This document shows positions 3,439 through 15,599 of a DNA stretch of 19,084 nt, one piece after another. Each line of letters opens with the position of its first letter. Positions within the stretch are counted from its first letter, which is position 1. The position numbers and the translations under genes are program-made. The notes beneath the pieces are model-generated. The model saw only the letters and a program-made list of their open reading frames with translations, made no database searches and was not told the origin of the DNA. The stretch lies in IMG/VR virus record IMGVR_UViG_2744054976_000008, one strand, 5' to 3'. The stretch comes from a virus. Lineage: Duplodnaviria > Heunggongvirae > Uroviricota > Caudoviricetes.

Positions 3439-3601
3439 CACCTAGTTTTCCCAAGTCAACCCACATCAACAAAATCATTTAAAAACATATATATTACGTT
3501 GTTTTCATACGTTTGAGGTCAACCCTTGTCTCTTGAAATCAACACGCGGTTGGGGGCACAATCAGGGGCATGTTCTGTTCGGTCTAGGAAATGTGCCCCC
3601 A

Positions 3602-4792
3602 ATGATGCTGAATGCCCGCAAGGTTGAAGCTGCGAAAGGAAAAGAGAAGAGCTACAAGCTGTTTGATGGAGGTGGCCTATACCTTCAGGTCGAACCTAAT
3701 GGCTCGCGTTACTGGCGTATGAAATACCGTTTTGCTGGTAAAGAGAAACGATTGTCCTTTGGTGTTTATCCAACAGTCACACTTGCTGATGCCAGACAAA
3801 AACGAGAAGACGCGAAGAAACTACTCGCAGCAGGTGAAGATCCCGGCGAAGTCAAAAAAGCCAAAAAGCAGGCTTTAAATGCAGCGATTGAGACACTTAA
3901 CCCATTCAGAGAAGTGGCGTTAGAGTGGCACAAAATGAAATCACCCAAATGGTCTGAGGGCTATGCTTCCGACATCATTGAGGCATTCGAGAAAGACATT
4001 TTCCCGCATATTGGGCACAGACCTATAGCTGATATTCAGCCCCTTGAACTGCTTGAAGTTCTGAGGTTGATAGAAACTCGAGGCGCTATGGAGAAAGCGA
4101 AGAAAGTCCGTCAGCGATGCGGTGAAGTTTTTCGCTATGCCATCGTAACGGGTAGGGCAATCTACAATCCGGCACCGGATCTTGCCAGTGCGATGCAAGG
4201 ACATGAAGCAGTCCACTATCCATTCCTCAAAGCCAACGAACTACCGGAGTTCTTTAATGCCCTTAATTCTTATTCAGGAAGTCCAATTGTATTGTTGGGG
4301 GCGCATTTACTTATCCTGACAGGTCTACGAACTGGAGAACTACGAGCAGGTGAGTGGCGAGAGGTGGATTTTGATAATGCGGTGTGGGAGATCCCAAAAG
4401 AACGTATGAAAATGCGTAGGAGCCATATTGTCCCGTTGTCAAAACAAGCATTATCCCATCTCAAAAGTTTGAAAGAACTAACTGGGAACTACCCGCTGAT
4501 GTTCCCTGGACGCAACGATCCTAGCAAATTTATGAGTGAAGCAAGCATTAATCAGGTGTTTAAACGTATTGGATATGCAGGGCGTGTTACGGGGCATGGT
4601 TTCAGGCATACGATGAGTACAATCCTACATGAGAAAGGATTTAACAGCGCTTGGATTGAAACCCAGCTTGCTCATTCGGACAAAAACTCTATTCGTGGAA
4701 TTTATAACCATGCCCAATATCTCGAAGGGAGAAGAGAAATGATGCAATGGTATGCTAATTATTTATCTGAGCTAATTGGTACTCATAAATGA
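3602..4792 (+). CDS. int: Tyrosine-type site-specific integrase (P4-like, with N-terminal arm-binding domain)
   Basis: Track ORF 3533..4792 starts at a TTG; the likely start is ATG 3602 (MMLNARK...). N-terminus KSYKLFDGGGLYLQVEPNGSRYWRMKYRFAGKEKRLSFGVYP resembles the integrase arm-type DNA-binding domain. Catalytic signatures: LTGLRTGELR, HGFRHT and a C-terminal tyrosine region (GIYNHAQY). Confidence 0.9.
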   Translation: MMLNARKVEAAKGKEKSYKLFDGGGLYLQVEPNGSRYWRMKYRFAGKEKRLSFGVYPTVTLADARQKREDAKKLLAAGEDPGEVKKAKKQALNAAIETLNPFREVALEWHKMKSPKWSEGYASDIIEAFEKDIFPHIGHRPIADIQPLELLEVLRLIETRGAMEKAKKVRQRCGEVFRYAIVTGRAIYNPAPDLASAMQGHEAVHYPFLKANELPEFFNALNSYSGSPIVLLGAHLLILTGLRTGELRAGEWREVDFDNAVWEIPKERMKMRRSHIVPLSKQALSHLKSLKELTGNYPLMFPGRNDPSKFMSEASINQVFKRIGYAGRVTGHGFRHTMSTILHEKGFNSAWIETQLAHSDKNSIRGIYNHAQYLEGRREMMQWYANYLSELIGTHK

Positions 4793-5613
4793 ATATTTTA
4801 AAAATTAATAATACTGATTCTCTGCTCAGAGATTACTACCAGTTGGATGAAGCTTCAGAAAAAATTGGTTGTAGTGAAAAGGATATACTCTGGTTTGCCA
4901 GAGAACGAGATGTAGAGCTATGCATGGAATTCCATGATGATGAGTATGATGTTTCATGTGGTTTGAAGATTGATGGTCAAATGGATGAGTTCTTATCTAA
5001 TCTGAAATATTTACCACGAGATAGAAATGGCAATATTATGTTGTCAGACTTAAGTTCTATAAGAATCCCTGATGAAGATAATTTAATTGATAAAAATGGT
5101 TTTATTCGATGTTTCATATCCGGTTTATGGGCTGTTGATTATGAATATAAAGATCTGTTAGTTAAGCATGAGGGGCAACCGGATTCCTGGCCTATTCATT
5201 TTCTACTGGCGGGTACGCCTAATATAAATTGTAAGGTAATTCTTTATGTAAATTATGATGAAAAAGAAAATTATTATCTTTTTGAGGTTTTGTGGATTAC
5301 AAAGGTACAGATTCAAAAATTCATTGATATAGTCTTATGCGAACAAAAGCGGATAAAAAACGCCAATAAATATAAATCACAATCTGAGGCGCAAAAACAA
5401 AAACATGCTGTTCCTCGAGCTGAAATACTCATGGCTATTATTTCGCTCTATCATCGTGATATGAGGCTAAGAAGAGAGAGTCCAGCAGCGATAGCTGATT
5501 ATCTTTTTCAACATGCCAGTGAGTTCTGGCCTAAGACCGGAGAACCGCCTTTGAGCTATGATACTGTTGTTAGTTTGCTACGTAGTTGCATGAAAAACAT
5601 TAAGTTTAACTAA
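4789..5613 (+). CDS. Hypothetical protein (274 aa), AT-rich, translationally coupled to int; possible N-terminal HTH
   Basis: Its ATG overlaps the int stop (ATGA at 4789-4792). The ORF is long, uninterrupted and AT-rich, with no motif I can assign; the N-terminal segment LDEASEKIGCSEKDILWFARE is HTH-like by eye. Confidence 0.6.
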   Translation: MNILKINNTDSLLRDYYQLDEASEKIGCSEKDILWFARERDVELCMEFHDDEYDVSCGLKIDGQMDEFLSNLKYLPRDRNGNIMLSDLSSIRIPDEDNLIDKNGFIRCFISGLWAVDYEYKDLLVKHEGQPDSWPIHFLLAGTPNINCKVILYVNYDEKENYYLFEVLWITKVQIQKFIDIVLCEQKRIKNANKYKSQSEAQKQKHAVPRAEILMAIISLYHRDMRLRRESPAAIADYLFQHASEFWPKTGEPPLSYDTVVSLLRSCMKNIKFN

Positions 5614-5738
5614 ATATTAACAATTATTGTGGCTAATGATTTTGGATTTTTTTCATTAGTCACATTTTTCTCATTTATAACCTATGTTTTAATTTTCCGT
5701 GTTGAAGCCAATAGACTTAGATAAACGGAGAATGATGA

Positions 5739-6029
5739 ATGTTATCTAAACATGATAATACTACTTTGCAACGACCTTCAATGGATTCTCTGATCGATAT
5801 GAAGTTTATTACTTCCGATTGTTTATTAAGTGATAAATGGATTTATCGATTGATTTCTCTGAATCGCTTTCCAAAACCTATAAAAATAGGTCGGATGTCA
5901 CGATGGCGCGCTGCTGATTATTATAAGTGGCGAGATGGGTTTGAAGAAAACTCAGGTCAACATTTTGAGGGAATGAGAAATAAGGCAAGAGCAATTAATA
6001 AAGGGAATAGATTATCACCTACTCCCTAA
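5739..6029 (+). CDS. alpA: AlpA-family phage transcriptional regulator / excisionase-like DNA-binding protein
   Basis: GGAG lies 9 nt upstream of ATG 5739. Core MKFITSDCLLSDKWIYRLISLNRFPKPIKIGRMSRWRAADYYKW resembles AlpA/Xis-type winged-helix proteins (FPKPxKxG...W...W). Confidence 0.7.
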   Translation: MLSKHDNTTLQRPSMDSLIDMKFITSDCLLSDKWIYRLISLNRFPKPIKIGRMSRWRAADYYKWRDGFEENSGQHFEGMRNKARAINKGNRLSPTP

Positions 6030-6061
6030 GCCTTAATTGATAGTTAGTAATATTTAACTGA

Positions 6062-6235
6062 TTAGCCTTTAGGGTCAATCCCGCGTGATTGGAGTTCTTT
6101 GCGTAAAATTCTTTTAATCCAAGTTGCCAACGCGCTATCTCCATCTTTGCGCATTTCGTTTTCGAGTTGCAACCTAAAATCGTCGGTAAGACGCATTTGG
6201 AATGGTGGAGAACGTTTCTCTTGTGGTGTTGACAT
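6062..6235 (-). CDS. Arc/Mnt-like ribbon-helix-helix repressor (58 aa); absent from the ORF track (below its size cutoff)
   Basis: Manual minus-strand translation from ATG 6235..6233 to TAA 6064..6062 gives MSTPQEKRSPPFQMRLTDDFRLQLENEMRKDGDSALATWIKRILRKELQSRGIDPKR. The PPFQMRLTDDFRLQLENEMRKDGDS segment parallels the P22 Arc N-terminal beta-strand and helix A (PQFNLRWPREVLDLVRKVAEENGRS, from memory). Confidence 0.55.
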   Translation of the reverse strand: MSTPQEKRSPPFQMRLTDDFRLQLENEMRKDGDSALATWIKRILRKELQSRGIDPKG

Positions 6236-6275
6236 GGTAATTACCCTAGAATATGATGACTACATGGTAATTACC
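6233..6275. promoter_or_regulatory. Twin operator-like palindromes: two copies of ACATGGTAATTACC, each with a perfect 10-bp palindrome GGTAATTACC, 30 bp apart
   Basis: Direct repeats at 6233-6245 and 6263-6275; GGTAATTACC is self-complementary. The first copy overlaps the start codon of the minus-strand RHH gene. The region is the divergent control region between the RHH gene and the rightward early operon. Confidence 0.55.
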
Positions 6276-6303
6276 ATTGTAAGTATAGTTCGCTTGTAAA
6301 AGC

Positions 6304-6338
6304 AATGCCCGATTGTGCGGGAACACAAATCGGGCATT
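6304..6338. promoter_or_regulatory. Perfect 11-bp inverted repeat AATGCCCGATT / AATCGGGCATT with a 13-nt loop (regulatory hairpin or weak leftward terminator)
   Basis: Seen directly. On the minus strand it is followed by GCTTTTAC; on the plus strand there is no U-tract. It lies at the transition from the AT-rich to the GC-rich part of the element. Confidence 0.35.
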
Positions 6339-6366
6339 TAACCAACCGTTATAAGAGGTAACGAAG

Positions 6367-6543
6367 ATGGCTAAACAGAAGTGTACCTGGTTATTTGCGG
6401 CGATCAACCGCAGTCAACGCAATGCCCGTCCTGTGATGTTAAGGATCACCGCAGATAACGAGCGGTCAGCGCGGCGCAGACTTGCCCCGGACTATGTACT
6501 GAGCTTTGCCGGGCGCATTCCCTGCGGAGGTGAACATGCGTAA
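6367..6543 (+). CDS. Small protein (58 aa), possibly Icd-like host cell-division inhibitor of P4-type elements
   Basis: AAGAGG lies 8 nt upstream of ATG 6367. Translation: MAKQKCTWLFAAINRSQRNARPVMLRITADNERSARRRLAPDYVLSFAGRIPCGGEHA. Its stop overlaps the next gene's start (ATGCGTAA). Not in the ORF track (under 60 aa). The family assignment rests on recollection only. Confidence 0.4.
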   Translation: MAKQKCTWLFAAINRSQRNARPVMLRITADNERSARRRLAPDYVLSFAGRIPCGGEHA

Positions 6544-6895
6544 TTATCCGCACCCCGGCGAACGCTGGCAGCATGAACGTGGCTGGACGGTCACGATTAT
6601 CCGATTAATAGAAGCCTCGCCCTCTGTGGCGCTGGTTAATCCTGAATTCAGCTGTGAAGTGCTGATACGTCATGACAGCGACAACCAGCTTTCTTCCTGC
6701 CCTCTGGCATGGTTTGAACAGCGGTATACGCGCCTGTTTGATGTACCGCTCTTTAAGCCTGCACCAGCTCCTGCAGGCGGTAGTGGTTCCGGCCCGCTGA
6801 CACTGCATCCGTCTGTGCTATTTATCCGCTGGCGGGAGCGTAGCATATGGCGTTCTGCTGAGCCTGACGACGGTCACTATTCAAAGTTTCTCTGA
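6536..6895 (+). CDS. Hypothetical protein of the P4-like early operon (119 aa)
   Basis: Track ORF 6506..6895; the likely start is ATG 6536 with GGAGG 7 nt upstream. Collinear and overlapping with its neighbours. Confidence 0.55.
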   Translation: MRNYPHPGERWQHERGWTVTIIRLIEASPSVALVNPEFSCEVLIRHDSDNQLSSCPLAWFEQRYTRLFDVPLFKPAPAPAGGSGSGPLTLHPSVLFIRWRERSIWRSAEPDDGHYSKFL

Positions 6896-6926: not shown

Positions 6927-7211
6927 ATGAATATTTCAAACGGGCACAACGGTGCTCAGGGCCACACTTTGCCTGAAAAACACAATACCGGTGCTTTTGC
7001 CTATGGGTTGTCAGAGGACAGTTTCGGAAAGCTGACCCGCGCAAGAAATGCCTGCGACATGCTCCAGCTTCTCTTTTCTGAATACCCGTCTCAGGCCGGA
7101 GCACTGGACGCTGGCTGTGCGCATGGTGTCGCCGCGCTGATGGAGTACCTGCGGGCAGATTTGACGGATATTGCACACAGTTGCGCACTGATTGAAGGAG
7201 GTGCCAGATGA
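6927..7211 (+). CDS. Hypothetical protein of the P4-like early operon (94 aa)
   Basis: Track ORF; GGAG upstream; its stop overlaps the next start (ATGA at 7208-7211). Confidence 0.55.
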   Translation: MNISNGHNGAQGHTLPEKHNTGAFAYGLSEDSFGKLTRARNACDMLQLLFSEYPSQAGALDAGCAHGVAALMEYLRADLTDIAHSCALIEGGAR

Positions 7212-7591
7212 ACCAGCCGCAGGTTTCCATTTTCCCGGCAGAAATGACCACCGCGCTTTACCGGCGAGCTATTGCTTCAGCATGGCGGCAGAAAATGCTG
7301 AACGAAACTGGCAGTGATCAGTATGGTCCGCACAGCCTGACGGTGGAGCGTATTGAAATGGCCATTGCGCTGCATATCGAGTGCGTACTGATTAACGAGT
7401 ACGGCGAAGTGCAGGGCGCCGCTGCCGCGCTGGCACTGCTGACTGACATGCTGGAGCCGTCACTGCTAACCGCACCGCCGGTACTGACCGCGCGCGGCTG
7501 TGAAGTGATGGCGGAGATGTACCGCACGCTTCCGGCGGCCTTTGATGACTTCTGCAGTACCGGTGTGACGTTGTATGAGGGGGAAGTATGA
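7208..7591 (+). CDS. Hypothetical protein of the P4-like early operon (127 aa)
   Basis: Track ORF; GAAGGAGG upstream; ATGA overlap with the primase gene start at 7588. Confidence 0.55.
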   Translation: MNQPQVSIFPAEMTTALYRRAIASAWRQKMLNETGSDQYGPHSLTVERIEMAIALHIECVLINEYGEVQGAAAALALLTDMLEPSLLTAPPVLTARGCEVMAEMYRTLPAAFDDFCSTGVTLYEGEV

Positions 7592-10260
7592 CAATACAGA
7601 CGGTTACGCAGATTTCAGCCGCCGCACGGGGGAAATGGCCCGTTATTCTGCAGATGCTGCGTATTGATGTACCTGAAAACGGCAGGCACGGTCCCTGCCC
7701 GAAATGTGGGGGCAAGGATCGTTTTCGCCTTGATGACCTTGACGGGCGCGGGACGTGGATCTGCAGCCAGTGTGGCAATGGTGATGGTCTGGATCTGGTT
7801 AAGCTCGTAACCGGTTACAGCGTCAGAAAGGCTGCGCAGGAGGTGGCGCAGGTGCTTAATGTGCCGGATGTGCAGGAACTGCCTGTTAAGCCTGCCAGAC
7901 AAAAAGCCCCTAAACGCGACATGGGTCTTACCGTGGCGGCGCTGATGAAAGAGAGCCACACGGGAGAAAGCGCCTATCTGACAGAAAAAGGGTTCGCCGG
8001 ATACCCGGCCTCTCTGACCGGAAGCGTGCAGCATATCAGCGGTAAGGATTTCCCTGCCGGTTCCCTGCTGTTACCACTCACGACCAACACCGGAGCCGTG
8101 ACCGGTGCACAGCTTATCGCCCCGACGGGTGAAAAAAGCATACTGCCCGGCAGCACGATGAAAGGCGCGTTTGTGTCGCTCAGCCCGTTACCGTCTGAAC
8201 CACCGGTACAGGTGGTGATTACCGAAGGTTACGCTACGGCGCTGACGGTAAGCCAGCTCACTGCCGGATGCGTAGTGGCTGCCATATCTGCGGGCAACCT
8301 GCCCAATGTGGCGCAGTCGCTGCGGGCACGCTGGCCTGAGGTAAAAATTATCATCGCCGGTGATAACGATTTTCAGGACGGGGGTGAGAATCCCGGCAGA
8401 GCCTTTGCTGAACGGGCGGCAAAAGCTGTTGGCGGTTGGATGACGCTGCCACCAGGAGAGATTAAGGCTGACTGGAATGACTTTCATCGGGAGCACGGTA
8501 TTACCCGTGCCCGTGAAGCCTTTCGCAACGGTCTGGTACTGTGCGGGGAAGGCCGCACGCAACTGCCGCACGGGTTCCGTCTTACCCAGGAATATCTCTG
8601 GTATGAAAAGCAGGTACAGCGCAACGGTGAGACGGAGATCCAGAACGTCAAAATATGCAGCCCGCTGCGCGTGACGGCAATCACCTGCGATGCCGATGGC
8701 GGTAACTTCGGACGACTGCTGGAATGGGAAGATACGTGGGGTGAGCGTCGCCGCTGGGCGATGCCGATGGAAATGCTGAGCGGCAGTGGTGAGGAACTGC
8801 GCCGGGTACTGCTGGTTAACGGGCTGTCTTATATCAGCACCACCGGCGAGGCACGCGCACGCCTGATGGAATATATCTCACTGTGTAAACCGGAACGCCG
8901 CGTGACCTGCGTCAGCCGTACTGGCTGGCATGGTCAGGTTTACGTCCTGCAGGATGAGGTCAGCGGTGAAGGTGCAGAGGGTGTCATTCTCCAGACCACT
9001 TCCGTGCAGGGGCGTGATTTCCGCGTGTCGGGCACAACAGAGGAATGGCGGGAGAACGTATCCCGCTACTGTGCCGGCAACTCCCGCGTGGCATTTGCTG
9101 TCAGCCTGGCCTTTGCTGCACCACTGTTACGGCTGGTTGGTATGGACGGCGGCGGCTACCACCTCAAAGGGGAATCGACAGACGGTAAGACCACCACCAT
9201 GAAAGCGGCAACCTCCGTCTGCGGCGGGCCTGACTACTGGCAGACATGGCGGGCCACCGGCAACGCGCTGGAGGGATGCGCCAGCCGCCGCAACGATGCC
9301 GCCATGATGCTTGATGAGATCCGGGAAGTTGACGGACGCGAGGCAGGCAATATCGCCTACATGCTGGCAAACGGTCAGGGCAAGGGCCGTGCCGGTACGG
9401 ACGGTGAGCTGCGTACCCGTAAGCAGTGGCGCCTGTTGTTCTTTTCAACTGGCGAGTTGTCTCTGACCGAACATGCGGCAAAGGCCGGTGAGCGTACTTT
9501 TGCCGGGATGGAAGTCAGGATGATCCAGATCCCCAGCGATTCCGGGAAATTTGGCGTTTTTGAGGAACTGCACGGCTTCGACAGCGGCAAGGCTCTGGCA
9601 GAGCATCTTGAATGGGCCACGTCCTGCTACTACGGTTCGCCGTTCCGGGAGTGGCTGAAAGTACTGACCGCTGATCTTAATGGACTAACGGCACAGGCAA
9701 AATCGCTGATGAAGGAATATGCTGCCGCCCTGACTCCGAAAGATGCAGGCAATCAGGTGGGCCGGGCTGTGAATCGCTTTGCACTGGTGGCGATGGCGGG
9801 TGAACTGGCAACCCGTCTGGGTATCACCGGCTGGCCTGAGGGTGAAGCACTGCGGGCAACCCGCGTCTGCCTGAACGCATGGCTGAAAGATCGCGGGCAC
9901 ACCGCCAATCAGGAAGATATTGCCGCACTGGAGCAGGTTCGCAGTTTCTTTACCGCGAATCAGTACAGCCGCTTTGCAGACTGGTATGACGAGCGCAACC
10001 GCCCCGGCAATATGGTGGGCTGGCGCAGGGTGGAGAAAGGCAGTACCGCGCAGGGCACGGAAGCTGTCACTACGTTCTATGTCATGCCGTCCGGCTGGAA
10101 AGAAATCTGCAGGGGATTTGACCCGCGCAAGGTGGCGCGTCTGTGCGCAGATCGTGGATACCTGCTCCCCTCCACTGATGGCAAACTCCAGACAACCATT
10201 CGCCCGCCAGAGATGAATCCCCGCAGGCTCTATGTCTTCAACAGCAAGGTGCCGGGTTAA
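7588..10260 (+). CDS. P4 alpha-like bifunctional DNA primase-helicase (zinc ribbon + Toprim + P-loop NTPase)
   Basis: 890 aa. N-terminal Cys4 zinc ribbon CPKCGGKDRFRLDD...WICSQCG; Toprim signatures VVITEGYATA and IIIAGDNDFQDGG; Walker A GESTDGKTT in the C-terminal half. Confidence 0.85.
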   Translation: MTIQTVTQISAAARGKWPVILQMLRIDVPENGRHGPCPKCGGKDRFRLDDLDGRGTWICSQCGNGDGLDLVKLVTGYSVRKAAQEVAQVLNVPDVQELPVKPARQKAPKRDMGLTVAALMKESHTGESAYLTEKGFAGYPASLTGSVQHISGKDFPAGSLLLPLTTNTGAVTGAQLIAPTGEKSILPGSTMKGAFVSLSPLPSEPPVQVVITEGYATALTVSQLTAGCVVAAISAGNLPNVAQSLRARWPEVKIIIAGDNDFQDGGENPGRAFAERAAKAVGGWMTLPPGEIKADWNDFHREHGITRAREAFRNGLVLCGEGRTQLPHGFRLTQEYLWYEKQVQRNGETEIQNVKICSPLRVTAITCDADGGNFGRLLEWEDTWGERRRWAMPMEMLSGSGEELRRVLLVNGLSYISTTGEARARLMEYISLCKPERRVTCVSRTGWHGQVYVLQDEVSGEGAEGVILQTTSVQGRDFRVSGTTEEWRENVSRYCAGNSRVAFAVSLAFAAPLLRLVGMDGGGYHLKGESTDGKTTTMKAATSVCGGPDYWQTWRATGNALEGCASRRNDAAMMLDEIREVDGREAGNIAYMLANGQGKGRAGTDGELRTRKQWRLLFFSTGELSLTEHAAKAGERTFAGMEVRMIQIPSDSGKFGVFEELHGFDSGKALAEHLEWATSCYYGSPFREWLKVLTADLNGLTAQAKSLMKEYAAALTPKDAGNQVGRAVNRFALVAMAGELATRLGITGWPEGEALRATRVCLNAWLKDRGHTANQEDIAALEQVRSFFTANQYSRFADWYDERNRPGNMVGWRRVEKGSTAQGTEAVTTFYVMPSGWKEICRGFDPRKVARLCADRGYLLPSTDGKLQTTIRPPEMNPRRLYVFNSKVPG

Positions 10261-10482: not shown

Positions 10483-10660
10483 GCATAAGGGACATACAGC
10501 AGACTGAAACAGAGGGCATTTTTATCTGGCTGGCTTTCATAGCCACGTCTGAATAACCGCAATCGCGCGTTGTGCCAGCCACCATACACTGAGCACCGAT
10601 AGTGTGCTTGTGTCAGCCACGACACAATTTACGTAACGAATCAACCCGACAGGAGAAGTC

Positions 10661-11422
10661 ATGAACAACACCGCAGTGAATAACAATCTTTCCTCTTTTC
10701 CGGCTGTAACGCAGCGGGCACTGGAAACCATGAACACAGCCAGAAACGCATGGCTTGAAGCACGTCGTCAGCAGAAAGCGGCAGCGGATAATATTGCGAC
10801 AATCCGCCAGCGCCGCGCTGAAATGGAAGCCACGACTAACGCGCTGAATGAGGAGTGGCGCACGCTGTTTCGTGAAAGTCAGGGCGTAGTCTCAAAGGAA
10901 ATGAAAAAACTGCGTACGGAAATTGCGCTGGGGCGTGAAACGCTTGAGGATTTTGATGAGCTGCTGACTGCTCAGGAAAGCGAAAATGCATTATTACCGC
11001 AGGAAGCCGGGAAATTAGCCGGGCAGTATATCAGCGCACATAACACCCTTGTGGAAATTCGCGCAAAGCAAATCTGGGAAGACTTCATGCAGTCGCATGG
11101 AAAAGCGCTTATTCAGACGCTGAGCCTGCTTAAATCAACAATGGGCCGGGAAGCCAGTGCTGTTGTGGGTGTGGTGAATTCAGTTAATGACCCGGACACA
11201 GTGCTGAAAGACTTTATTCATAAACATATCACCAGACCGGCTCTGGCTAACGATGCGATGCCTGAACAGGACCCGGTGTTTAAACTGGCGGGAGTTGCCC
11301 CGGATTATGCAGCTCTTGCTGATTTCCGCAAAATTCCTTCTCCGGCAGCCCTTCATAAAATGAAGATCCGGCAGGAACGTGAGGAACTACAAAAACGTAA
11401 CCGAGCTGCGGAGGGTATCTGA
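10661..11422 (+). CDS. P4 Psu-like (polarity suppression) or Sid-like coiled-coil protein
   Basis: 253 aa, strongly helical and charged; AGGAG upstream. The segment SAHNTLVEIRAKQIWEDFMQSHGKAL resembles my recollection of P4 Psu; the gene lies immediately upstream of an Ogr/Delta gene as in the P4 late operon. Psu versus Sid cannot be resolved without an alignment. Confidence 0.5.
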   Translation: MNNTAVNNNLSSFPAVTQRALETMNTARNAWLEARRQQKAAADNIATIRQRRAEMEATTNALNEEWRTLFRESQGVVSKEMKKLRTEIALGRETLEDFDELLTAQESENALLPQEAGKLAGQYISAHNTLVEIRAKQIWEDFMQSHGKALIQTLSLLKSTMGREASAVVGVVNSVNDPDTVLKDFIHKHITRPALANDAMPEQDPVFKLAGVAPDYAALADFRKIPSPAALHKMKIRQEREELQKRNRAAEGI

Positions 11423-11694
11423 TGGCATTGAAATGTCCTTTCTGTTCAGCCATTGCACATTGTCGAGCCAGTGTGTACGAAGCCCCCTCTGTAAAGAAAA
11501 CGTACTACCAGTGCCAGAATCTGGAATGTTCAAGCACTTTTACGGCGCTTGAATCAGTGCATACCATTATCACCCGCCCGCAGAAAGAAGAGAATACGCA
11601 GACAGTAGAGGAGGCTACAGACAAAAAAGGGCAGACACTGAATCGCTATGGCTCTGCATCCAAGCTTTCCAGCCGCCAACAAATCCCTGTCTGA
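11422..11694 (+). CDS. Ogr/Delta-family zinc-finger late transcription activator
   Basis: MALKCPFCSAIAHCRASVYEAPSVKKTYYQCQNLECSSTF has the C-x2-C...C-x4-C spacing and YxCxN motif of P2 Ogr / P4 Delta. Start overlaps the upstream stop (TGATG). Confidence 0.8.
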   Translation: MALKCPFCSAIAHCRASVYEAPSVKKTYYQCQNLECSSTFTALESVHTIITRPQKEENTQTVEEATDKKGQTLNRYGSASKLSSRQQIPV

Positions 11695-11733: not shown

Positions 11734-12312
11734 ACGCCTTTTCTTGGCTGGCTTGAGGACGTATGAGTGCATGTCTATGGCGCATGAAAACGCATGAGTT
11801 CCATGCACCAATTTTGACGCGAAAGCCCTTGTGTTGCGGTTCCTGAGACGATTTACGGGGTGCATGAAAACCATTCTGTTAAGCGAAATGGGTAGGCGGG
11901 CGGGGCTGCGCACGTGGTAGGGCTAAATGGTCAATTCTGGTGCAATTCGCGAAACTCAGTCAGTTTCAATAGATGTAAGTGTTGCTGGGGGAGATTCGCT
12001 ACTTTTTGGTATCCTAAATCGTATGGTTCGATGTTGATCATCTTTTCTTCGCACCTGCAGAGATATCAATTAAATGTGAACAAATAAGAGTCTGGATCTT
12101 CCCATATCGCTAAAACCGCCAGTATTGTTAGGGATGATGCCCATATTATGCGGTGGGGACCAGCGAGCCGCCAACTTGTCAGCGTGGCCTACACAATTTC
12201 ATGCAGGTGACTGAAACTATTACATTAAGTGGTCAAGTGTAGCGAGGATGCGATTGCGCGCAACGATGTAAAGAGTTATAAAAGCATAAAGGATAGTACT
12301 GTGAGGGGGGTT

Positions 12313-13590
12313 ATGAACCGGCAGCCATTTACTTCATCAGCACTTAAGCGTAACTTGAGTGAAAGTGAGAAGAGTTTTTATTTTAATAAAAACAATGTGG
12401 ATAAATTAGAATCATTAATCAGTGATGCTGTTTTAATTGCCAGCGAAAATTTTCGTTCTGGAGTAACTGTAAAGAAAATAAATATCAAAGGACGTTGTGT
12501 TTACAACGCATCTTGTTTAAAAGAAAAACTAATACTTAGACATTGTAATGCAAACTTAAAATGTTTGGAGTCACTTCTACCCAAACAAAGAAATAAAATA
12601 ATTGATGAGCTTAAAATTTATCTCAAAGAAGGTGCACAATTCCGAGTGTATCGCTTAGATATAAAATCTTTTTTTGAATCTATCGATTTGCCTCAGCTCT
12701 TTCAATATTTGCAAGATGAACGGCGTTTATCCAGACATACTAAAAATTTGATAGAATGGTATCTTAAAGCTTGTGAAAGAATCCATTCATCAAAAGGTTT
12801 GCCAAGAGGACTGGAGATTAGTCCTATGTTATCTGAGCTATATTTGGCAGCATTTGATAGTAGTATTCATCGGCATTCAGAAGTGTTTTATTACTCTCGC
12901 TTTGTAGATGATATGGTGATCATTTCAAGTGGAAATGAATGCCCATCGACTTTAATGAAACAAATACAAAGTTTGTTACCCAAGGGATTAAGTTTAAATA
13001 CAAATAAGTTGAAGGTGTCCCCACTTATCGACAAAAGAAGCAAAGGCACGGCAGGTAAAGATAAATTACTCCATAAATTTGATTTTTTAGGTTACTCTTT
13101 TTCTGTAATAGATTCTCCTCTAAGTAACAAAGGTGCTACTTTAAGTGTATATAGAAAAGTAACTGTAGATTTATCTCGTGGACGCATAAAAAAAATTAAA
13201 ACTAGAATAGCAAAAGCTTTCTACTCCTACCATAGAACTGGTGATTTTAAATTGTTATTAGATAGAATTTCTTTTTTAACAAGCAATAGAGATTTAAATA
13301 GGAAGATTAGATCATTAAGTTCATTAGAGAAAGGTAAGGTTAGTACTGGAATTTATTATAGTAATGCAAGATTGGATGTAAATTCTATATCCTTAAAGCA
13401 ATTAGATGATTTTTTATTATATTGTGTTAAATCGAACAACGGACGTTTGCATAGTATTGCGAAACATTCCTTCACTGTAAACCAAAGAAAGGAGTTATTG
13501 CGCAATAGTTTTAGAAAAGGTTTTGTTGATAGAGTTTATAGGAAGTACAATTTCAAACGTTACACTGAGATCACAAAAATATGGCTATAA
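12313..13590 (+). CDS. Reverse transcriptase 1 (about 425 aa; defence-associated RT, candidate DRT3a/UG3-like)
   Basis: Track ORF 12229..13590 starts at a GTG; the likely start is ATG 12313 with GAGGGGGG upstream. RT motifs: RLDIKSFFESID (motif 1/2-like), GLPRGLEISPMLSELYLAAFD (motif B-like), YYSRFVDDMVIIS (catalytic F-x-D-D, motif C), LHKFDFLGYSF. Strongly AT-rich codon usage unlike the flanking backbone. Confidence 0.8.
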   Translation: MNRQPFTSSALKRNLSESEKSFYFNKNNVDKLESLISDAVLIASENFRSGVTVKKINIKGRCVYNASCLKEKLILRHCNANLKCLESLLPKQRNKIIDELKIYLKEGAQFRVYRLDIKSFFESIDLPQLFQYLQDERRLSRHTKNLIEWYLKACERIHSSKGLPRGLEISPMLSELYLAAFDSSIHRHSEVFYYSRFVDDMVIISSGNECPSTLMKQIQSLLPKGLSLNTNKLKVSPLIDKRSKGTAGKDKLLHKFDFLGYSFSVIDSPLSNKGATLSVYRKVTVDLSRGRIKKIKTRIAKAFYSYHRTGDFKLLLDRISFLTSNRDLNRKIRSLSSLEKGKVSTGIYYSNARLDVNSISLKQLDDFLLYCVKSNNGRLHSIAKHSFTVNQRKELLRNSFRKGFVDRVYRKYNFKRYTEITKIWL

Positions 13591-15599
13591 AGAAAAATGT
13601 AAAACTTGATAAGAAGGATTACCTCAGGGCTTTACTATGTGATACGCAACCAGGTGACTGTCCCATCATCTTTTCAAATGATGGATTGTATTTGAACCTG
13701 ACCGAGTTTGAAAATCATTATAAGGAGATTTTGTATTTCTCTCCCCTTTCTTCATTCGTAAAGAAAATTATTAATCCTGCTTTTGATTTGTCTATAAAAA
13801 TAGAAGAACGAGAAAAAGACAAGAAGAAACAAAGCTTTCCGTTTGGCTATTGCATTGTCAAGGATGCTTTTAGTTTAAGATATCTTTCTTTAATTCATCC
13901 CAGATCGCAACTTAATTATTGTGAGTTTTATAAAAATTACTCAACTGTTATAACATTAAATGCGTCAAAAAGTAATTACTCTATAAGATATCCTCGAAAG
14001 GTCGCAAACTCATTCTTCTTATATGAAAATAATGCCTCAGAGAAATATAAAGGAGAGGATATTGAAACAACAAATGATGAATTAATGAGGAAGTATTCAT
14101 CATCTTATTTTTCTTATGGCGGATTTAATAGGATATATAAGTTATTTCAAAGTAAAATGTTTTTTGATCTTGAGAAAAGATTCTCAATAATGTGGATGTT
14201 AGATGTATCACATTGTTTTGATAGTATATATACTCATTCTATTTCATGGGCTTTAAAAAATAAACCTTACATCAGAAAACATGTGAAATATAGCAATCAA
14301 TTTGGTCAGGAACTAGATACGTTGATGCAACGTAGTAATAATAATGAAACAAATGGTATACCTATAGGCTCAGAATTTAGTCGGGTCTTTGCTGAGTTAA
14401 TATTCCAGCGTATCGATTGTAGTATTGAATCAAATCTTTTTGATGAATACGGGTGGGTTAATCACGAGGACTATGTGATATTAAGGTATGTGGATGATTT
14501 TATAGTGTTTTGCAACAATGAAGCAAATGCTGAACTTATCACTAAAACCATTAACGTGAAGCTAAATGATTTTAATCTTCAGTTAAATATCAATAAACTT
14601 AAAAAATATTCTAGACCATTCTGCACTAGCAAGACAGGATTGATCATTAAAGTTAACGAACTAGTGCGGAATCTTGAAGGTAAATTATATAAAAGGATTG
14701 ATGGTGACATTTTTCTAAATAAGATTAGAAGCAAGCATGATTTAAAAGTGAATATGATAAATAATATCAAGTCTATATGTGTTGATAACAAGGTTTCTTA
14801 CACGGATATTTCCTCGTATCTGATATCTTCATTATCAAAAAGATTAATATTAATTATTGATTTCTTTCCGGTGGAAAAGATTAAAGGTGATGTTGAAATA
14901 CGTAAGAATATTAAAGATATTATATTTTTAGTAACTGATATAATGTTGTTTTTCTTCAGTGTTAACCCAACTGTGTCATCTTCATATAAATTATCAAAAA
15001 CAATGGTTATCGTTAATGATTATTTGAAAATGCTTTCAAGTGATTATAGCAGTATTTTTATGACAACATTAATAGATACTGCTGAAAATATCAATTTTGG
15101 TGAAAATGACAATGGTCTTTTTATTGATGGGTTTATTTCCATAGAGAAAGTTAATTTGATATTAGCTGCTACTTTTTTTGGGGATAATTATCTTGTAAGC
15201 ACTTCTTTCTTTAATGGTATTATACATAAAAAGAAATTGGATTACTTTACAATAATCTCATTATTATTCTATTTTAGAAATAGAAAACCTTATCAAGAAC
15301 TTAAACATATTGTTGAGGTTAGAATTAAAGATTTGCTATATCCTGATATGGATTTATTACAATCATCGGAAAAGGCACATTTATTCTTGGATGTTATGTC
15401 TTGCCCATTTGTTTCAATTGAGACAAGACGATTTTTGTACAGAAAATATCTCAAAAAATATGAGAAAAATGTGAATAGAAGCCATTTGGAAATTGAGAGC
15501 GATCTGCAATCTATGCTCAAAACTTATTGGTTTGTCAAGTGGGATGAGTTAGATCTTGTAAAGATGATTGAGAAAAAAGAATTGAAAGAAAGTTATTAA
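13581..15599 (+). CDS. Reverse transcriptase 2 (672 aa, with a long C-terminal extension; candidate DRT3b/UG8-like)
   Basis: ATG 13581 overlaps the RT1 stop by 10 nt. RT motifs: MLDVSHCFDSIYTHSISW (motif A-like), GIPIGSEFSRVFAELIF (motif B-like), ILRYVDDFIVF (YVDD catalytic motif), LQLNINKLKK. About 300 aa follow the fingers/palm region. AT-rich. Confidence 0.8.
   Translation: MAIKKNVKLDKKDYLRALLCDTQPGDCPIIFSNDGLYLNLTEFENHYKEILYFSPLSSFVKKIINPAFDLSIKIEEREKDKKKQSFPFGYCIVKDAFSLRYLSLIHPRSQLNYCEFYKNYSTVITLNASKSNYSIRYPRKVANSFFLYENNASEKYKGEDIETTNDELMRKYSSSYFSYGGFNRIYKLFQSKMFFDLEKRFSIMWMLDVSHCFDSIYTHSISWALKNKPYIRKHVKYSNQFGQELDTLMQRSNNNETNGIPIGSEFSRVFAELIFQRIDCSIESNLFDEYGWVNHEDYVILRYVDDFIVFCNNEANAELITKTINVKLNDFNLQLNINKLKKYSRPFCTSKTGLIIKVNELVRNLEGKLYKRIDGDIFLNKIRSKHDLKVNMINNIKSICVDNKVSYTDISSYLISSLSKRLILIIDFFPVEKIKGDVEIRKNIKDIIFLVTDIMLFFFSVNPTVSSSYKLSKTMVIVNDYLKMLSSDYSSIFMTTLIDTAENINFGENDNGLFIDGFISIEKVNLILAATFFGDNYLVSTSFFNGIIHKKKLDYFTIISLLFYFRNRKPYQELKHIVEVRIKDLLYPDMDLLQSSEKAHLFLDVMSCPFVSIETRRFLYRKYLKKYEKNVNRSHLEIESDLQSMLKTYWFVKWDELDLVKMIEKKELKESY

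Follow-up and report, generated by a model that had tools for sequence, protein, structure and literature searches.

A predicted Arc/Mnt-like repressor gene with twin palindromic sites on the replication-operon promoter of an E. coli P4-like satellite prophage

A 57-residue protein encoded between the integrase module and the replication genes of a P4-like satellite prophage is, judging from its sequence and genomic setting, very probably an Arc/Mnt-type repressor with two palindromic sites on the promoter of the replication operon. We refer to its gene as rhh. Overall, the evidence is best explained by a ribbon-helix-helix (RHH) repressor that would switch the early operon, with an antisense RNA as an additional layer of control; based on comparative sequence analysis and structure modelling, we give this reading a probability of about 0.7.

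The element and its gene map

The window, which is the whole stretch of 19,084 nucleotides that we analysed (IMG/VR record IMGVR_UViG_2744054976_000008), is an E. coli P4-like satellite prophage in which the core genes for integrase, AlpA/Vis, an alpha-like primase, Psu and Delta were all detected with Pfam and RefSeq (Table 1). The segment at 5700–6600, which includes rhh and its surroundings, is 100% identical in several complete E. coli chromosomes.

Table 1 Features of the satellite prophage in window coordinates.
Feature	Position	Strand	Details
Tyrosine integrase	3533–4792		
274-aa ORF	4789–5613		
AlpA/Vis-like gene	5739–6029		Convergent with rhh
Terminator-like hairpin and T run	6002–6027	−	About 35 nt past the rhh stop; overlaps the 3' end of the AlpA-like gene
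rhh	6062–6235	−	57-aa Arc/Mnt-like RHH protein (predicted)
Early promoter	6229–6257	+	TTGACA (6229–6234), 17 nt, TATGAT (6252–6257); 11/12 consensus match
op1, proximal candidate operator	6232–6245		ACATGGTAATTACC; core palindrome GGTAATTACC at 6236–6245
op2, distal candidate operator	6262–6277		ACATGGTAATTACC at 6262–6275; extended 14-bp palindrome ATGGTAATTACCAT at 6264–6277
Putative weak rhh promoter	6276–6305	−	TTGCTT (6305–6300), 18 nt, TACAAT (6281–6276); predicted
Putative SymR-like cis-antisense RNA, ~75 nt	6298–6372	−	Sub-threshold Rfam symR match, 31.6 bits, E 0.0013
Icd-like gene, first of the operon predicted to be controlled	6367–6543	+	NCBIfam phage_ICD_like, 84 bits
Small genes between the Icd-like gene and the primase	6536–6895, 6927–7211, 7208–7591	+	Third gene DUF5375 (Pfam)
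Toprim/DUF927 primase	7588–10260	+	Pfam, RefSeq
Psu	10661–11422		
Ogr/Delta	11422–11694		
Drt3a/Drt3b defence pair	12229–15599		

rhh is a conserved gene

The product of rhh (MSTPQEKRSPPFQMRLTDDFRLQLENEMRKDGDSALATWIKRILRKELQSRGIDPKG) comprises 57 residues followed by a stop codon in the ORF listing. The first-pass annotation had described an unannotated ORF of 58 codons encoding a 58-aa protein; the codon count stands when the stop is included, the protein length is one residue too many, and 'unannotated' held only for that annotation's own gene track, RefSeq carrying the product as hypothetical protein WP_001605077.1. The gene is uncharacterised rather than unannotated. Searching 5.8 billion proteins, we retrieved 85 homologues with 54–98% identity, nearly all 56–58 aa long, from Enterobacterales, Pasteurellaceae, Gilliamella and Oceanisphaera/Oceanimonas, with Escherichia, Citrobacter, Pantoea, Erwinia, Xenorhabdus, Photorhabdus, Yersinia and Pectobacterium among the genera represented. 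The family is compact: a search of 1.84 billion representatives yielded only 40 clusters at E ≤ 1e-3.

An ORF this short might simply not be expressed, in which case the repeats in front of it would be promoter-associated DNA elements only. We regard this as extremely unlikely in view of the median dN/dS of 0.11 across 58 distinct coding sequences, the retention of a length of 56–58 aa across distant genera, and a Shine-Dalgarno (SD)-like AGGG located 8 nt upstream of the ATG. The terminator-like hairpin that follows the stop codon indicates that rhh is monocistronic.

The rhh product is predicted to adopt an RHH fold

The protein carries a classical RHH signature, consisting of a strand that alternates polar and hydrophobic residues and includes basic ones (F12-Q13-M14-R15-L16), helix A, a G32-D33-S34 turn and helix B, in which D31, G32 and D33 are nearly invariant across the family. 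In the predicted layout, the β-strand spans residues ~11–16, helix A 18–31 and helix B 36–50, followed by a conserved tail, RGIDPKG. The AlphaFold2 (AF2) monomer model (pLDDT 78.8) shows both helices at these positions preceded by an extended N-terminus and contains no β-strand, as expected because the RHH sheet forms between subunits; the sheet itself is thus not demonstrated by the model. All seven Foldseek matches to the model are RHH or RHH-like proteins, none of them with an E-value below 1, in line with the expectation of the first-pass annotation that structure prediction would return this fold.

The annotation had also noted that the N-terminus parallels the β-strand and helix A of Arc, and profile comparisons bear this out: hhalign places residues 8–34 on Arc residues 6–32 in an Arc-like register, and 13 of the 40 family members match Pfam Arc (best E 1.5e-4). 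Similarly, PHROG 228, 'Arc-like repressor', is matched by the window protein at E 0.003. Neither a Pfam nor an NCBIfam model matches the window protein, which stays without a hit to Pfam Arc (PF03869, gathering cut-off 20.4 bits) even at E ≤ 10, and the distant relative P0108 reaches a sub-threshold 18.5 bits against that cut-off. A sequence profile search of the PDB returned only designed helical repeats and Sec31, which we discarded as spurious helix-loop-helix matches. From the sequence comparisons and the model, we conclude that the rhh product probably belongs to the RHH superfamily (Arc/MetJ/CopG), though it does not score as a member of the Pfam Arc family.

Pfam HicB (RHH domain) is matched above its gathering score by two of the distant relatives, P0105 and P0108, and homologue names at JGI include 'predicted HicB family RNase H-like nuclease'. 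In addition, the accessory genes that a survey of Enterobacter satellites reports for P4-like elements and PICIs include one named 'HicB' (PMC13612085), which is probably rhh. These names raise the question of whether rhh could be the remnant, or a solo copy, of a HicB-like antitoxin from a type II toxin-antitoxin pair. We rejected this reading as very unlikely: a protein of 57 residues is too short to contain the HicB N-terminal domain or a tail for toxin binding, no HicA or other toxin gene shares an operon with rhh, and rhh is followed 35 nt after its stop by its own terminator without any co-transcribed partner. Furthermore, the position of the gene and the overlap of operators with promoters are kept in front of replication operons.

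The C-terminal tail following helix B (residues 50–57, 6062–6088; S-R-G-I-D/E-P-K-G) is kept even in the most distant relatives (P0099–P0113), and may provide dimer-dimer or partner contacts.

Twin palindromes lie on two predicted, overlapping divergent promoters

Upstream of rhh, we confirmed the arrangement reported in the first-pass annotation, namely two exact copies of ACATGGTAATTACC, each containing the perfect palindrome GGTAATTACC, spaced 30 bp start to start, with the first overlapping the ATG. More precisely, op1 overlaps the rhh start codon (CAT at 6233–6235 on the + strand) and the flank of its SD sequence. A 14-mer resembling ACATGGTAATTACC with at most two mismatches is expected by chance 0.17 times per window, and no further exact copy of GGTAATTACC occurs within the window. 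The same two-palindrome layout is found upstream of rhh homologues in most of ~50 distinct loci from ~25 genera, and this conservation shows that the palindromes are not a chance occurrence. The proximal palindrome of the relatives always ends at the start codon or 1 nt into it. The centre-to-centre spacing, by contrast with the earlier suggestion that 'about three helical turns' might be a constraint, lies anywhere between 27 and 35 bp in the relatives, and we therefore reject a conserved helical phasing. Two loci, from Pantoea allii and P. ananatis (L056 and L057), encode a homologue with a KTDQYQIRL-class strand and have neither recognisable twin palindromes nor the AGCCAT unit described below upstream of it; the module may have decayed or been rewired there.

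The protein was also proposed to control a divergent early operon, and the promoter map agrees: the palindromes overlap a strong promoter reading into the Icd-like gene and on to the primase, as well as the rhh start and its likely promoter. In the early promoter, op1 occupies the spacer between the −35 and −10 elements, and op2 begins 5 nt past the −10 element and covers the expected transcription start at ~6264. In 25 of the 26 loci examined, the distance from TTGACA to the rhh start is unchanged, and a hexamer resembling a −10 element separates the two palindromes. This −35 element is the reverse complement of rhh codons 1–3 (ATGTCAA); the encoding of the −35 element at this place accounts for the recurrence of the ATGTCAA start context in nearly all loci and for the invariant, or nearly invariant, Met-Ser at the start of the protein.

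For rhh itself we propose a weak promoter on the opposite strand, which matches the consensus at about 8/12 hexamer positions (7.5–8/12), below our threshold of 9/12. Its −10 element abuts op2, and its expected start at ~6269 falls inside op2, face-to-face with the early promoter. A pattern of the same kind, TTGyTT-17/18-TAcAAT with the −10 element ending at −40/−41, recurs in most loci of the GGTAATTACC class. The −10 hexamers of the two promoters face each other at a distance of 18 bp, from which we infer that two polymerases could not bind together.

Palindromes and the predicted recognition strand change together

Across loci, the predicted β-strand of the rhh product and the sequence of the palindromes vary in concert. 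Proteins with the strand KRSP[PQ][FY]QMRL accompany GGTAATTACC, the distal copy often being GGTCATTACC or GGTCGTTACC; KRSPQFPMRL accompanies GGTATATACC, KTDQYQ[IL]RL accompanies TTGTAATTACAA, the Pasteurellaceae strand variants accompany TGTAATTACA and RGNPPFQFRL accompanies GTGTAATTACAC. As this set comprises about five clades that are related rather than phylogenetically independent, we take the covariation as strong circumstantial evidence, not proof, that the rhh product reads the palindromes.

The genetic linkage points in the same direction. The first gene of the divergent operon differs from locus to locus, being an Icd-like gene, a primase gene or a gene for unrelated 115-aa proteins, and rhh is the only protein-coding gene that is consistently linked to the palindromes. 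This bears on the alternative that the palindromes serve another factor, such as an AlpA/Vis-like protein, an integrase, or a host or helper-phage protein, with the small ORF having a different job. An AlpA-like gene does lie 33 bp beyond the rhh stop, and Vis of P4 binds the P4 early promoter region. Nevertheless, the palindromes persist although an AlpA homologue is detectable near rhh in only about a quarter of the loci, and the GTAATTAC core stays with rhh in elements that otherwise consist of unrelated genes. Changes in the flanks and centre of the palindrome follow changes in the rhh β-strand, and P4, which has Vis, possesses neither rhh nor the palindrome. We therefore consider another reader of the palindromes unlikely, and favour the rhh product.

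A putative SymR-like antisense RNA overlaps the start of the early operon

Nearly all loci contain a conserved unit that lies between the rhh promoter and the first operon gene, irrespective of the identity of that gene. On the rhh strand, its parts are, in order, a TAnnnT box (commonly with a TGn extension), 7 nt, AGCCAT, a hairpin with an anti-Shine-Dalgarno loop, UGGUYAGA, a GC-rich hairpin and a T run. We interpret the unit as the gene of a short cis-antisense RNA. In the window, the putative −10 box of this RNA (TACACT, 6385–6380) lies 7 nt upstream of its 5' end, which reads AGCCAU and is thereby complementary to the ATGGCT start of the Icd-like gene. There follow a first hairpin (6347–6363) carrying the anti-SD loop, UGGUUAAA, and a terminator hairpin (6304–6338) with a U run, such that the RNA covers both the SD/ribosome-binding site and the start codon of the Icd-like gene.

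An alignment of 37 loci supports this structure, with 94% of cells paired compared to 35–45% in slid controls, and with compensatory changes in 14 pairs. About 46 G-U cells occur in the hairpins and about 80 in the structured element, including an invariant G-U in helix 1, the outer helix. We assigned the RNA to the antisense strand because the minus strand alone is compatible with the T run and with the G-U pairing. The same observation led us to reject a P4-style immunity RNA on the sense strand, in which the hairpin at 6304–6338 and the repeats at 6296–6311 and 6413–6428 would have supplied seqA, seqB and seqC. No C4-type RNA was found by Rfam, and P4 DNA shows no similarity.

Full-length alignments (1–77) to Rfam symR (RF01809) were obtained at the same position in three further loci, L010, L013 and L058, at 42.1, 33.2 and 26.7 bits, respectively; these loci and the window all miss the gathering score of 61 bits. 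By analogy with SymR, the RNA would block translation of the Icd-like gene.

In nearly all of the loci L002–L062, the first gene of the divergent operon starts with Met-Ala (ATGGCT), even when the proteins are unrelated. This constraint seems to be due to the 5' end of the antisense RNA, whose AGCCAU pairs with UGGU, rather than to the protein.

The region additionally contains a 16-nt direct repeat at 6296–6311 and 6413–6428 (GTAAAAGCAATGCCCG and GTCAACGCAATGCCCG), with a further pair of segments at 6324–6338 and 6421–6435. The repeat places a second complement of the terminator hairpin arm inside the Icd-like ORF; it is not conserved in L005.

The predicted repressor and its candidate operators are exchanged as a cassette

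Comparison of related elements shows that the left part of the region is replaced as a block. Three loci (L060–L062) align with the window from 6333–6346 rightwards at 76–94% DNA identity, of which L060 and L061, from Pantoea and Enterobacter, remain ~93% identical through primase and psu, and L062 is ~76% identical. To the left of this point, their RHH proteins are only 52–54% identical to that of the window and their operators are different.

In E. coli, the early region is present in 333 of 5426 complete genomes and the window allele of rhh in only 66; the match of the elements lacking this allele breaks off at 6307 or 6341 of the window. By sampling the ranking evenly, we obtained estimates of how the slot is filled among the 333 genomes, namely ~20% with the window allele, ~20% with the RGNPPFQFRL class and ~57% with YlcI/YnfO. 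Two examples illustrate the exchange, both encoding an Icd-like protein identical to that of the window next to a different small gene and different repeats in the rhh slot. The first (L073; NZ_AP045736.1, 2217–2445) has an RGNPPFQFRL-class homologue, an RHH allele of the 54% type, accompanied by GTGTCATTACAC and GGTGTAATTGAC. The second (L072; NZ_CP028578.2, 2189–2485) has a bona fide YlcI/YnfO protein (65.7 bits) with an RHH-like sequence pattern, preceded by three TGAATCGCAC direct repeats, in contrast to the two palindromes of rhh.

Like the rhh product, YlcI/YnfO proteins (NF041551) are small (~60 aa) and are encoded in the identical slot of sister P4-like elements. The L073 homologue and P0097 score 19.9–20.4 bits with this model, whereas the window protein is not matched at E ≤ 1. 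Our literature search found no characterisation of the YlcI/YnfO family.

An immunity or specificity module would be expected to show exchange of this kind. The suggestion in the first-pass annotation that rhh forms an immunity or maintenance switch gains support from this exchange of repressor/operator cassettes between otherwise identical elements, and we consider it plausible on these sequence comparisons.

Proposed mechanism of the switch

In our model, the rhh product would act as a small dimeric RHH repressor, each dimer reading one GGTAATTACC through its N-terminal β-ribbon (~P10–R15). In the resident state, op1 and op2 would both be occupied, keeping polymerase off the operon that runs from the Icd-like gene to the primase. 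Since the two sites cover the start of the rhh promoter and the ribosome-binding region, rhh would also limit its own synthesis. The antisense RNA, made constitutively, would mop up leaky translation of the Icd-like gene. Upon derepression, the early promoter would fire and transcribe across the antisense gene, reinforcing the 'on' state, and because the promoters physically overlap, loss of repressor should let the early promoter occlude the rhh promoter and lock that state in. The trigger is presumably a helper-phage or AlpA-dependent event. Dimerisation, binding, repression, autoregulation and bistability are in this model predictions made from the DNA and protein sequences.

The rhh product might instead bind the palindromes mainly for a transient, Arc-like shut-off of early expression, or to regulate helper-phage DNA, rather than for maintenance. 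In P22, Arc acts in lytic growth and Mnt in lysogeny, and sequence alone cannot separate a lytic from a lysogenic role. Arc is a repressor of both Pant and Pmnt, promoters that diverge and overlap (PMC2724298). We see a small chance that such a role is the main one, given that rhh lies outside the operon and divergent from the promoter it would control, which is the arrangement of Mnt and not of Arc. It also has a terminator and a putative weak promoter of its own, and the window contains no GGTAATTACC sites beyond the two operators. A maintenance repressor remains our preferred reading.

Comparison with known regulatory systems

Judged by analogy, the closest textbook parallel is the immI region of P22. 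In both, the gene of a small RHH repressor is transcribed divergently from the strong promoter under its control (predicted control in the satellite), operators lie inside and at the start of this promoter, the two promoters overlap physically, and a short antisense RNA, sar in P22 and a putative one in the satellite, covers the ribosome-binding site of one of the operon's genes. The two systems differ in that immI employs two proteins with two different operators, whereas a single RHH protein and one palindrome present twice are found here. The rhh product lacks the C-terminal tetramerisation domain of Mnt, its sequence similarity to Arc is marginal, and the window RNA resembles SymR, not sar. 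The controlled function is an antirepressor in P22; here it would be the Icd-like and primase functions of a satellite.

SymR of E. coli is a cis-antisense RNA that covers the start codon and SD sequence of its target (PMC4147584). The window RNA shares with the SymR/SymE pair (RF01809) a length of ~75 nt, the cis-antisense orientation and a 5' end located just inside the target ORF. It differs in its scores, which range from 27 to 42 bits across four loci compared to the gathering score of 61, in its target, which is the Icd-like gene or another first gene of a satellite operon rather than SymE, and in its partner, which would be an RHH repressor rather than LexA.

With P4 itself, the element shares the order int, Vis/AlpA, early promoter, Icd-like ORF and primase, with psu and delta as later, late genes; the early promoter is placed like PLE, the early left-operon promoter of P4, and the first ORF starts with ATGGCT there too. 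Both rhh and GGTAATTACC are missing from P4, in which the gap between vis and the following annotated ORF, 'cI', is only ~180 bp. The immunity RNA of P4 (CI RNA) is read from the sense strand, in contrast to the structured leader RNA described here, which is supported on the antisense strand only.

The Stl master repressors of staphylococcal pathogenicity islands (SaPIs) offer a positional parallel: their gene is divergent from the replication operon, lies between it and the integrase module, and shows allelic diversity between islands; rhh is located between the same two modules. Stl proteins are larger helix-turn-helix proteins, with no relation to the rhh product in sequence or fold.

Small RHH repressors that act through palindromic operators on a divergent promoter are, as a kind of system, thoroughly known. 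In our literature search, we found no relevant paper on an RHH or Arc-like repressor in P4-like satellites, or on its operators or RNA; two matches were discarded, in one of which 'icd' stood for isocitrate dehydrogenase, the other concerning a PerC-like regulator. What appears to be new is the rhh family, together with its allelic cassettes and its position in P4-like satellites. More broadly, and with odds that we would set somewhat below even, exchangeable cassettes of small RHH-type repressors and their operators, together with the SymR-like RNA, could constitute an undescribed master switch of many P4-like and PICI-like satellites in Gammaproteobacteria, located where P4 has its RNA immunity. 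The alleles would then correspond to heteroimmune groups and/or to different helper antirepressors, as for Stl.

A large share of Enterobacterales genomes contains P4-like satellites, which carry defence systems (DRT type 3 in the present element); to our knowledge, P4 is the only one whose silencing and waking are understood in detail. A repressor protein whose operators can be read and whose alleles are exchangeable would predict which satellites cross-regulate each other, and would provide a bait for finding the helper-phage inducer. A repressor role would also explain why tiny genes labelled 'hypothetical', 'HicB' or 'YlcI/YnfO' hold a fixed position in satellites, and the paired operator and β-strand variants would form a natural specificity series for RHH-DNA recognition.

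Additional features of the element

Downstream of psu and delta, the overlapping reverse transcriptase genes of Drt3a (12229–13590, 435 bits) and Drt3b (13581–15599, 665 bits), both on the + strand, make up a DRT type 3 defence system. Just upstream of psu are two TGT-N12-ACA motifs on the + strand (10571–10588, TGTGCCAGCCACCATACA, and 10609–10626, TGTGTCAGCCACGACACA), which look like candidate sites of an Ogr/Delta-activated late promoter. We rejected a PLL-like late promoter in front of the AlpA-like gene; there is no TGT-N12-ACA there, and the pair upstream of psu is the sole one.

The integrase gene is flanked in the window by a resolvase gene (89–613) and an autotransporter gene (744–2975, − strand), and no tRNA gene was detected beside it in the window. 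In NZ_CP128592.1 (L001, 4313–5914), the region identical to the window over 5700–6600 adjoins tRNA-Thr, downstream of proA, and an IS1 interrupts the counterpart of the 274-aa ORF.

Finally, three Photorhabdus loci (L024, L025 and L027) contain two whole modules in tandem, each with antisense RNA, palindromes and rhh, located ~1.2 kb apart at ~3640–3790 and ~4856–5000.
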